Of a stretch of 54,870 nt of DNA, positions 11,301-14,444 are shown one piece after another. Source of the stretch: Catajapyx aquilonaris (Eukaryota); NCBI GenBank assembly GCA_000934665.2, contig KZ538669.1, positions 1 to 54,870 on the forward strand, written 5' to 3'. The notes below the pieces were generated by a model. It saw nothing but the letters and a program-made list of their open reading frames with translations, did not search any database and was not told the origin of the DNA. A program made the translations under genes and the position numbers. Each line of letters opens with the position of its first letter. The stretch's first letter is position 1.

Positions 11301-13002
11301 CAAAGAAAAATGGTGAGAGTATCCAGTTTGACATAAAACTTGAATTTTTAAAGGGATCCACGTGGCTTTGCTGTCAAGTTCTACGCCGAGGATGGTAACT
11401 GGGACCTGGTAGGCAACAACACTCCTATCTTCTTCATTCGGGATGCCTTTTTGTTCCCGAGCTTCATCCACACCCAGAAGCGAAACCCAGTCACTCACCT
11501 CAAGGTAGGTCTAAATTTAGTACATTCTATTATTACTTCATGGTGTGACAGGTGTTTGAACCGCATGGTTTTGGTTTTTTAAAAAGGATTCTGATGCCTT
11601 CTGGGACTTCTTCACCCTGAGACATGAGGCCCTCCATCAGTTCTCGTTCCTTTTCTCTGGCCGCGGGATTCCCGATGGTTACCGACACATGAATGGATAC
11701 GGTTCTCACACTTTCAAGCTGGTCAACGCCAAGGGAGACGCCGTCTACTGCAAGTTCCATTACAAGGTCAGTTCTCAACTATTTCAGGAATAGTTTTTTC
11801 CGTGTTGCTCATCTTTACTGAAAAAAAGTTATTCAGTCCCCATGGAATTTCGCCATGAATTGTTGCGCAATAAAATAATTCAATAGTGAAATTGAAATCG
11901 TGGATTGGGGTTTTCAGACCAACCAAGGCATCAAGAACCTGTCTCCAGAGAAGGCTACTGAACTGGCCTCGACTGATCCTGACTACGCCATCCGCGACTT
12001 GCACAATGCCATCGCTTCAGGAAATTACCCATCGTACACTATGTCCATCCAGGTGATGACCTTCGCCCAGGCAGAGAAATTCCGATGGAATCCCTTCGAC
12101 CTGACCAAGGTTAGTCTCACGCCTCTCTCTCACTGCATAATGCCATTGTTGTCCTACTATATATGCAGTATTGTGTGTAATTCTCAAGCTTATTCAACAT
12201 CACCCTAAATAGTTCCAATACTGATACAAAGTAACATATCCCATCCCCAGGTGTGGCCACATTCAGAGTTCCCACTGATCCCAGTGGGTAAGCTGGTGCT
12301 GGACCGCAACCCAAAGAATTACTTCACCGAGGTGGAGCAGTCTGCTTTCAGCCCTGCTCATATGATTCCTGGAATCGAGCCCAGCCCCGACAAGATGTTG
12401 CAGGTAAGCCACATTTCACGCATTCTTCGTAAAATGTATGGGAAGTACAGCTCACTAATGGTGCAATTTTAGGGCCGCCTTTTCGCATATGATGACACCC
12501 ATCGTCACCGTCTGGGGGCCAACTACATCCAACTCCCTGTGAACTGCCCGTACCGTGCCCGTCCTTCCCACTACCAACGTGATGGACCTCAGAGCATCGC
12601 CGAACCAACAGCTGCTCCCAACTACTATCCCAACAGCTTCAACGGCCCTCAGGACTCCTCCAAGTACAAGGAGCACCGCTTCAGCACCTCTGGAGACGTT
12701 GAGAGGTAAGCTCCATATTGGGAAGGCTGAACTGTCACTAATCCCACATCATCGCCAGATACAACTCGGCTGATGAAGACAACTACACCCAGGTAGCCAC
12801 GTTCTTCACGAAGGTCCTGTCCGAGGAGGAACGCAAGCAGTTGACCGCCAATGTTGCTGGTCACCTGATCAACGCTTCGCCCTTCCTGCACGAGCGTGCA
12901 GTCAAGATGTACAGCCAGGTCCACCCAGACTACGGCCGCATGGTCAAGGAGAACCTCGACAAGCTGAAGAACAAGTCCTCTGTTAGTGGTGCCAGGCTCT
13001 AG
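8394..13002 (+). CDS. Cat: Monofunctional heme catalase, 507 aa. Exons 8394-8450, 9448-9619, 10777-10918, 11354-11504, 11587-11766, 11918-12109, 12251-12403, 12473-12705, 12759-13002
   Basis: The phase-consistent spliced ORF (1524 nt) contains [15 protein letters not shown] (distal His), RFSTV, DLVGNN (distal Asn), [26 protein letters not shown] (proximal Tyr) and C-terminal ...SVSGARL* (PTS1). Confidence 0.97.
9215..9225 (+). promoter_or_regulatory. Consensus Nrf2/CncC-Maf antioxidant response element in catalase intron 1
   Basis: ATGAGTCAGCA fully matches RTGA(C/G)nnnGCA with an embedded AP-1 core. Further RTGACnnnGC matches occur at 7786-7795 and 8078-8088 upstream. Confidence 0.5.
10010..10553 (+). 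mobile_element. hAT Buster/Charlie-type transposon remnant (C-terminal dimerisation-domain fragment plus 3' TIR) in catalase intron 2
   Basis: Frameshifted translation ...FW...[13 protein letters not shown]...[36 protein letters not shown] (about 10190-10436) matches the Buster/ZBED8-type C-terminus. The 3' end GGGGTACGCGGCGAAAAAAGTTTGGGAAGCCCTG is a typical Charlie terminus. The 5' TIR is not found. Confidence 0.85.
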
Positions 13003-14003
13003 AAAACTTTCAAACCATTGCTAACGCTTGATCAGGTCACTAATTAAGTCACTGTTAGATCTCTTGGGGGGTGTTGTAGAGCAGTAGGTCTTAGAATATG
13101 GGAGTTTGAATACATGACTGATATCTTAAATCGGTGGAGGTGTTTCTTGTTTTTGTTGTAGGCTTCGTATAGCCTACATTGGTGACTTCGCAACTGAGTT
13201 GCAGGTATTCATCTCCACGCTTATCTTTCTGTAGGATGCTAGATTAGTGCTGACAGCAAGGCCACCTGAATGCCAGTGATGTTGCTTAGCAGGGTTTGCA
13301 CCAGTAGCATAACCAAAACTGTTTGATGTTTTGAAAAGTTTTTGACTCATTTTGCATGATTGGAGTGAAAATATGTCTAAATTTTCAATAATAAATGCGA
13401 TTATCTCCGTAATAGAGACGAAATTGTCCAAACCAGCTAGAAAAAGTTTGAATTCGAAATTGGAAGAGAATCTAGGTCTGAGAGGACATTATTCGCGCAC
13501 CTTTTCCACCACCCTGTAGATGCATAATTATCAGATAATTATTATGTAAATGCAAGCAATATCTTGTGATTCAGGTGGTAAGTAGAGCTTCTTACTAATA
13601 AGCATGGTAGCAAGTAAGTGTATGAGGAGTTGCATGATGAGATATCTGATATTAATTTTTAACAACCAGTGAGAGTCAAAATGCAAAAAATAATCCAAAA
13701 CATAATCCACTAATTTGCATAGCTGTTTATTAGTAGACATTATGTCAGCATACAATTTCCTATTTCAAAAAATGCAATATGATTCATTAATATATTATGA
13801 TGTTACATAACTTACACAGAGGTGTTAGGTCTAAACACCTGCTAACATCTAAAATATGTCACTATGACTGTTTCTATATGTTTGGAAGCCTAAAAATACT
13901 CTGCACTAAGTGTACTGGCCAGATATCTCATTTTGTAACAAATCTCCTGAGAGGAGAATGACTCGACAAAATTACTAACCTCATTTTATTTTTTTTATTT
14001 CAG

Positions 14004-14444
14004 AAGTAAATCTACACTGATCACCACAAGAATTTTGACTCAAGATTTTATTTTAGCGCTATATGAGGTAATACGCAAATATATATATACCAGCACAATA
14101 ATCAATCACAGGATATATGCTATGATTTCACATGGTGAGGGAAAGTATTCTGGGACATACTCTTTCATATTTAATTTTTTTATAGCTTAGAGCGGGTTGC
14201 ATAATATGCGTCGCAAATATCCAGCCTAAGTGTATATTATCCACTTTATGATTACTGACACTATGATGATGTGAGGTTTATCACAACATGGAAGTTTACT
14301 GAAGTATGGTGCTAAAGAGTACAGTATAATTTGTAGCAATGGTGAATGACAATCACTTATTTTAAATCATACATAAGAGTAATGTAATTCTTTCAAAGCA
14401 TGACACGTTTCAATACTTAGTGGTGTATTACTGTTTGGAATAAA
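14004..14444 (+). other. Candidate alternative terminal exon of catalase (codes K* then 3' UTR)
   Basis: Branch point TACTAAC 13973-13979, T-rich tract, CAG 14001-14003, then AAG TAA. AATAAA at 14439-14444. An in-frame donor TCT|GTTAGT lies at 12981/12982. Confidence 0.6.

Follow-up and report, generated by a model that had tools for sequence, protein, structure and literature searches.

Catalase is a textbook marker of the peroxisome, and the import of the mammalian enzyme, the C-terminal motif of which is KANL, is dependent on a C-terminal signal and on PEX5. Cytosolic and peroxisomal catalases are encoded by separate genes in some organisms, such as CTT1 and CTA1 in yeast and ctl-1 and ctl-2 in Caenorhabditis elegans. 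The partial residence of animal catalase in the cytosol has been explained by a weak signal combined with post-translational control of import, and a 2022 review describes only post-translational control in animals, namely redox sensing by PEX5 and phosphorylation of PEX14 (PMC9549241). Yeast catalase A carries an internal peroxisomal signal besides its C-terminal peroxisomal targeting signal 1 (PTS1), that is, two independent signals, and the source that reports this lists catalase under 'multiple targeting signals' only (PMC3798809). The same source describes switching of the PTS1 by splicing in other enzymes, including pumpkin hydroxypyruvate reductase (HPR1/HPR2), which is subject to light-regulated alternative splicing (Hayashi 1996 and Mano 1999, cited therein), Yarrowia malate dehydrogenase, and fungal GAPDH and PGK, in which a cryptic PTS1 comes into use when an alternative splice is made or the stop codon is read through (Freitag 2012 and Kabran 2012, cited therein). 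The nearest published case for a catalase is Arabidopsis CAT2, of which a rare variant (At4g35090.2) retains the last intron and ends in WSQV; targeting is unchanged there, as CAT2 without its last 18 residues still goes to peroxisomes and complements the mutant (PMC9305541). Here, we describe a catalase gene of Catajapyx aquilonaris, located on a stretch of 54,870 nucleotides (assembly GCA_000934665.2, contig KZ538669.1, positions 1 to 54,870 of the forward strand; hereafter referred to as the window), that gives rise to two mRNAs through an optional last intron, one in which the PTS1 codons are kept and one from which they are spliced out.

The initial annotation of this stretch, made from its letters, had proposed a splice-controlled PTS1 switch and had stated that such regulation is known for some fungal and other enzymes, as the pumpkin, Yarrowia and fungal examples bear out (PMC3798809). 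A direct reading of positions 12700-14700 recovered all the features that the annotation had placed at the 3' end of the gene. The coding end reads AAC AAG TCC TCT GTT AGT GGT GCC AGG CTC TAG, with the stop codon at 13000-13002, and contains an alternative 5' splice site (tct|GTTAGT, 12982..12987, + strand) that is built from the Val-Ser codons just before the PTS1 codons and is used in the joint 12981>14004. The GT of this site falls at a codon boundary (phase 0), in agreement with the open reading frame 12742..13002 and with the exon phases. When the ninth intron (12982..14003, + strand; 1022 nt, 36% G+C) is kept, the six codons for VSGARL and the TAG (12982..13002, + strand) are read, and the retained intron provides the tail, the stop and the 3' untranslated region (UTR). 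When it is removed, the reading frame passes into a distal terminal exon (14004..14243, + strand), which opens with AAG TAA (Lys, stop; 14004-14009) and continues as 3' UTR. The gene model yields the two products foreseen in the annotation, one of 507 amino acids ending in -VSGARL from the unspliced RNA and one of 502 amino acids ending in NKSSK from the spliced RNA. The tripeptide ARL, which closes the reading frame of the unspliced RNA, conforms to the PTS1 consensus (S/A/C)(K/R/H)(L/M) and is a canonical PTS1 according to PMC9305541; SSK does not conform to it, and only one of the two products thereby carries a PTS1. A random reading frame would end in such a tripeptide about 0.4% of the time, as estimated from codon counts.

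Evidence at the RNA level was drawn from a single public run (X1) of one study, the only one in which this locus is represented, in the form of Logan contigs rather than raw reads (32 million letters, kind of run not on record). The run covers 0.84 of the sampled words, and its contigs were placed on positions 8000-15500; it was judged to be RNA-derived because its contigs skip introns. A contig of 1576 nt, with 0 mismatches, skips eight GT..AG segments (introns 1-8) of the gene and terminates exactly at 12981. Another contig, with a depth of 1350 and 30 letters on its shorter side, joins 12981 straight to 14004 and thus skips the 1022 nucleotides of a GT..AG segment with no ambiguous letters. 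An unspliced contig of 1082 nt runs through the same region from 12952 to 14033 (0 mismatches, depth 84.8), and the spliced and the unspliced paths both reach a contig of 240 nt that spans the distal exon at 14004-14243 (0 mismatches, depth 968). The 30-letter offsets at both ends are those expected of a graph of 31-letter words, in which the two paths form the two arms of one branch. The junction 12981>14004, which had been predicted from the DNA, is present in the RNA-derived contigs of run X1. Its acceptor is joined from a donor upstream of the stop; a donor within the 3' UTR, which would have made this a pure 3' UTR intron and by the initial annotation's own criterion refuted the switch, is not its partner, and joints from other donor-like sites (CAG|GTCACT near 13016; 13578; 13614) are absent among the X1 contigs, which drop rare variants.

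The joined form could also have arisen without splicing, from a second genomic copy or an allele without the 1022 bases, or through an error of assembly in the run. The contigs were compared with the DNA of the window alone, and one short contig, with 30 letters on its shorter side, is all that carries the junction. However, the skipped segment begins with GT and ends with AG without any positional ambiguity and carries a branch-point motif and a pyrimidine tract of about 20 nt, the flanking contigs match the window with 0 mismatches, and eight other spliced joints of the same gene are found in the same run, all of which makes an origin other than splicing highly improbable.

Contig depth is a poor gauge of expression level; the depths of the two arms (1350 versus 84.8) hint that the spliced, PTS1-less form is more abundant, by about 16-fold. 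The PTS1-bearing form had been implied to be the standard one in the initial annotation, and this weak evidence points to the reverse. Retention of introns 1-8 is not seen among the listed X1 contigs, and intron 9 alone is kept unspliced as well as removed; on the weak evidence of contig depth, its retention stands out among the introns of the gene. These observations bear on a rather unlikely alternative, according to which the gene yields a PTS1-less catalase from the spliced mRNA and no other protein. The unspliced RNA would then be a transcript that is processed slowly or detained with its terminal intron, and the -ARL codons would persist as an ancestral relic that has yet to decay. Terminal introns are frequently the last to be spliced out, and the spliced arm, by the weak evidence of depth, lies far above the unspliced one, both of which would suit a detained transcript, whereas the other eight introns are joined across in the contig and none of them is retained among the listed contigs. 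The state of the tail itself, which also bears on this alternative, is discussed below along with the tails of the relatives.

The splice signals of intron 9 are uneven. Its donor shares the hexamer GTTAGT with that of intron 6 (aag|GTTAGT), as had been pointed out in the initial annotation, and is weak on the exon side, where it has TCT and the other eight donors have aag, cag, gag, gcg or ccg. The acceptor region (13973..14003, + strand) comprises a branch-point-like TACTAAC (13973-13979), a T-rich pyrimidine tract and the CAG at 14001-14003 that is used in the RNA contig. The distance from the end of TACTAAC to the junction is 24 nt, a CTAAT is present at a similar distance in introns 7 and 8, and the pyrimidine tract of the acceptor, CCTCATTTTATTTTTTTTATTTCAG|aag, is at about 20 nt the longest of the gene. 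A donor that is weak on its exon side together with a strong acceptor is a frequent layout of optional introns, and intron 9 fits this layout. An RNA fold computed around the donor is nothing special (z-score 0.38), and no further copy of intron 9 was found within the window. A permissive Rfam scan of 12700-14800 for known RNA families gave only a sub-threshold match at chance level (Ocean-VII, E 0.71), and a promoter/terminator scan, of bacterial type and not applicable to a eukaryote, gave nothing above shuffled sequences.

Two candidate polyadenylation signals, both AATAAA on the + strand and both read from the sequence only, were located inside intron 9 (proximal, 13390..13395) and further downstream (distal, 14439..14444); the initial annotation had assigned the former to the unspliced and the latter to the spliced route. 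The unspliced contig passes the proximal signal and extends up to 14033; therefore at least some of the unspliced RNA runs on past it. Common polyadenylation hexamers were not found between 14083 and 14243. The segment 14275-14776 is free of X1 contigs and the contig of the distal exon stops at 14243, although such gaps prove nothing, as contigs show neither RNA ends nor strand. The stop codon of the spliced form is situated 3 nt past the last junction and no junction follows the stop codon of the unspliced form; thus, by the usual rule, neither mRNA should undergo junction-dependent decay.

The tail encoded in intron 9 was compared with the C-terminal ends of related catalases. Those of the nearest sequences are ...KEKRSANSRL (P0001), ...RRTVSANL (P0002), ...NLISGRL (P0073) and ...TKQASM (P0050), and when the last 50 residues are aligned, VSGARL keeps the same register as the -SRL, -ANL, -GRL and -SNL ends of related catalases. 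Judged from this in-register alignment, the tail within the retained intron is the ancestral C-terminal end, intact and in frame, with the donor built from its Val-Ser codons. For a wider survey, 121 proteins (P0001-P0121, being the 120 listed matches of one search and P0002 from another) were considered, of which 75 animal catalases of 480-560 amino acids with a recognisable C-terminal helix were kept, 31 being dropped for their length and 15 for want of the helix pattern. A strict PTS1 was found in 12 of the 75 and a relaxed, PTS1-like tripeptide in 49, and the remaining 14 have neither, some of which may be mispredicted models. The tail-less ends include those of corals (...EYRN, ...EYKN), a scallop (...SYKN, also recorded as a cloned cDNA), an abalone (...KVEP), a hemichordate (...KAAKK) and a nemertean (...KHSK), and the set includes P0011, P0016, P0082, P0085, P0099, P0107 and P0117. 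The coral, scallop, nemertean and hemichordate catalases end at one shared alignment column, just before the PTS1 tails of the others. The existence of such tail-less enzymes in several animal groups would be in keeping with a catalase made only in the PTS1-less form, as in the alternative of a detained transcript; on the other hand, the six-codon extension of the Catajapyx gene has remained intact, keeps the reading frame and closes with a canonical tripeptide, for which the chance in a random frame is the 0.4% given above.

Pairs of predicted isoforms were also examined for a similar difference in the tail, and among the pairs compared only that of the jellyfish Rhopilema esculentum differs there. 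Its two NCBI-predicted models, X1 (P0097, 506 amino acids, ending in ...AAYKSKTSMASNL) and X2 (P0150, 499 amino acids, ending in ...AAYKSK), differ only by a PTS1-like tail, and the break between them lies at most 2 alignment columns from the break in the window catalase. The tail of the jellyfish enzyme, TSMASNL in X1, seems to sit on a separate exon, whereas that of the window catalase is inside the retained intron. A third-party model (P0151) continues as ...KSKVYIE..., which looks like translation into an intron with GT at its start. Taken together, these gene models suggest that in a cnidarian the PTS1 tail is immediately preceded by an intron. The X1/X2 pairs of Glandiceps, Pocillopora, Stylophora, Eriocheir, Ischnura and Centruroides were rejected as analogues, as they have the same C-terminal end and differ N-terminally, and so were the pairs of Limulus, Tachypleus and Stegodyphus, which share one common C-terminal end and differ elsewhere. 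Three Logan proteins of the crab catalase cluster (P0160-P0162) extend past the usual end with ...SNAKLW... and about 35 further residues, which is probably a prediction artefact of a stop codon read as Trp by the gene caller.

The protein searches did not find a close relative of the window catalase, and no candidates emerged when short proteins related to the last exon were sought. A metagenome scan with the last exon retrieved three loci with 36-44% identity, which are too distant to judge the conservation of the intron; one of them (L001) is an intronless, transcript-like catalase ending in ...TSAL.

On the basis of the above observations, we propose, with a probability of roughly 55%, that the optional last intron decides whether the PTS1 is translated and thereby shares catalase between the peroxisome and the cytosol. 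Central to the proposal is the position of the 5' splice site, which would place the choice in the pair of Val and Ser codons that leads into the C-terminal PTS1. When intron 9 is kept, six extra codons would be translated, and the resulting end, -VSGARL, would bind Pex5 and lead to import into the peroxisome. When it is removed, the tail codons and their stop would be exchanged for a Lys codon and a TAA from an exon 1 kb downstream, and the resulting enzyme of 502 amino acids, ending in -SSK and devoid of a PTS1, would be largely cytosolic unless carried in with PTS1-bearing subunits. The division of catalase between the two compartments would then follow from the splice ratio. The RNA forms, the junction and the reading frames being observed, we infer from them the translation of both forms, the binding of Pex5, the two locations and the regulation.

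An extended form of this proposal, which we consider speculative and on balance rather doubtful, treats the optional intron as a rheostat. The tail-less major and the -ARL minor subunits would co-assemble, and their ratio would set the share of tetramers carried by Pex5 and would shift with oxidative stress or with tissue. As a jellyfish model pair shows the same choice and corals, molluscs, a hemichordate and a nemertean have catalases without the tail, the optional PTS1 would on this account be old or repeatedly evolved in animals, with the tail-less species as a fixed end-state.

Several points weigh against the proposed sharing of catalase between the peroxisome and the cytosol. All the RNA support comes from one run of one study, as contigs whose depth is a poor measure, and the unspliced RNA could be unfinished or held in the nucleus and never be translated. 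The arrangement was read in this one window, and a second catalase gene may be present elsewhere in the genome. As 14 of the 75 surveyed catalases are without a PTS1-like tripeptide, a tail-less catalase may be a normal state. Furthermore, by analogy with Arabidopsis CAT2 (PMC9305541) and yeast catalase A (PMC3798809), import may well persist when the tail is missing.

The last of these points leads to another alternative, in which both proteins are made, their location is set by other determinants or by mixed tetramers, and the real effect of the switch lies in the different 3' UTR, through stability, translation or localisation of the mRNA. The dependence of mammalian catalase import on the C-terminal signal and PEX5 speaks against such a role, and so does the splice site, which falls exactly at the codon boundary before the signal, as a UTR switch alone would not require. 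The two mRNAs differ by about 1 kb of 3' UTR, and precedents for import by other means are offered by the yeast enzyme with its two independent signals (PMC3798809) and by Arabidopsis CAT2, where the protein without the last 18 residues, equivalent to the natural variant with the last intron retained, is still targeted and complements the mutant (PMC9305541); however, control of catalase import through PEX5 and PEX14 has been described (PMC9549241). On the whole, we regard an effect confined to the 3' UTR as quite unlikely and retain the choice of the PTS1 by splicing as the preferred reading.

The gene itself, apart from its 3' end, codes for an ordinary, typical monofunctional heme catalase, as assessed from the sequence. 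Its start codon is at 8394, and the transcript contig starts at 8321, inside the 5' UTR. Nine coding exons on the + strand, common to both isoforms and delimited by the splice joints of the RNA-derived contig, extend over 8394-8450 (exon 1), 9448-9619 (exon 2), 10777-10918 (exon 3), 11354-11504 (exon 4), 11587-11766 (exon 5), 11918-12109 (exon 6), 12251-12403 (exon 7), 12473-12705 (exon 8) and 12759-12981 (exon 9, within the open reading frame noted above), with introns 1-9 measuring 997, 1157, 435, 82, 151, 141, 69, 53 and 1022 nt, respectively. In a Pfam profile search, the translations of seven exons tile positions 1-382 of the 383 positions of the Catalase domain (PF00199) in order, with E-values from 3e-16 to 7e-26, all better than the curated cut-off, and the last exon matches positions 3-65 of the 65 positions of the Catalase-rel domain (PF06628, E 4.7e-17). 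Both alternative tails fall past the end of the latter domain. The stretch RVVHAKGAG and a second stretch, of 15 residues, are present and are kept in comparison with the catalase P0002; they are the putative sites of the catalytic His and the proximal Tyr heme ligand.

Over the full length, the protein shares 69-74% identity with the catalases of crab, lobster, spider, horseshoe crab, a hemichordate and birds. In a FastTree phylogeny of 97 catalases, the window catalase groups with three proteins (support 0.875), which fall inside a group of 20 leaves (no support value) made up otherwise of malacostracans and chelicerates, and this group is nested in a clade of 53 leaves (support 0.806) that also contains insects and an ostracod. 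The tree thereby lends loose support to an arthropod origin of the sequence.

A few other features of the window may be mentioned. Just downstream of the catalase gene, the segment 14777-15278 carries many X1 RNA contigs, whose bin depths range up to 418 and among which there are several loose ends, and 39 of the 52 contigs placed on 8000-15500 reach a likeness of only 90-95%; an expressed family of transposon-like repeats seems to lie here. Exon-sized open frames that belong to other genes were found on the + strand at 48021-48659, with an NAD-dependent epimerase/dehydratase domain (PF01370, E 6e-45), and at 37118-37519, with a C2 domain (PF00168, E 2.4e-07). Six overlapping stop-free frames of 130-240 amino acids lie on both strands at 26075-26932 and have no Pfam match, which suggests a skewed composition or a repeat and not a gene. 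The window has 342 N.

If the proposed switch is true, the choice of the catalase signal at the RNA level constitutes a mechanism that is different from post-translational control and easily testable, with the signal-less mRNA apparently being the commoner one. In such animals, catalase should then be used with caution where a pure marker of peroxisomes is wanted, and the many invertebrate catalases that are annotated without a PTS1, such as the 14 of the survey, would deserve a second look. Full-text searches of open-access papers and bioRxiv brought up no report of an animal catalase with a PTS1 under splice control, a scope within which absence is not proof. What would be new here is a PTS1 switch by splicing in an animal catalase, such switches being already known in plants and fungi.

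Compared with mammalian catalase and its weak C-terminal signal, the outcome proposed here would be the same, namely sharing between peroxisome and cytosol from one gene, but control is post-translational on a single protein species in the mammals, whereas two mRNAs are found here. Yeast with CTT1/CTA1 and C. elegans with ctl-1/ctl-2 likewise possess a PTS1-less and a PTS1-bearing catalase in one organism, through gene duplication and not through splicing. In Arabidopsis CAT2, as in the Catajapyx gene, the last intron of a catalase gene is optionally kept and the C-terminal end is altered in consequence. However, retention removes the tail in CAT2, where the tail is dispensable for targeting, whereas here retention supplies a canonical PTS1 and splicing removes it; moreover, the tail-less form is a rare variant in Arabidopsis and apparently the commoner one here. 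The pumpkin HPR1/HPR2 system is similar in that one gene gives two mRNAs which differ only at the C-terminal coding end, one of them with a PTS1. It yields peroxisomal and cytosolic isoenzymes of an enzyme which, unlike catalase, belongs to plant photorespiration, and the location and regulation established there by experiment are inferred here. The fungal GAPDH and PGK and the Yarrowia malate dehydrogenase resemble the present case in that a minor isoform receives a PTS1 through a choice made at the RNA level at the coding end. In the fungal cases, though, an enzyme that is mainly cytosolic, with a cytosolic major isoform, gains a hidden PTS1, whereas in the gene described here a classically peroxisomal enzyme would lose its ancestral PTS1 by splicing.

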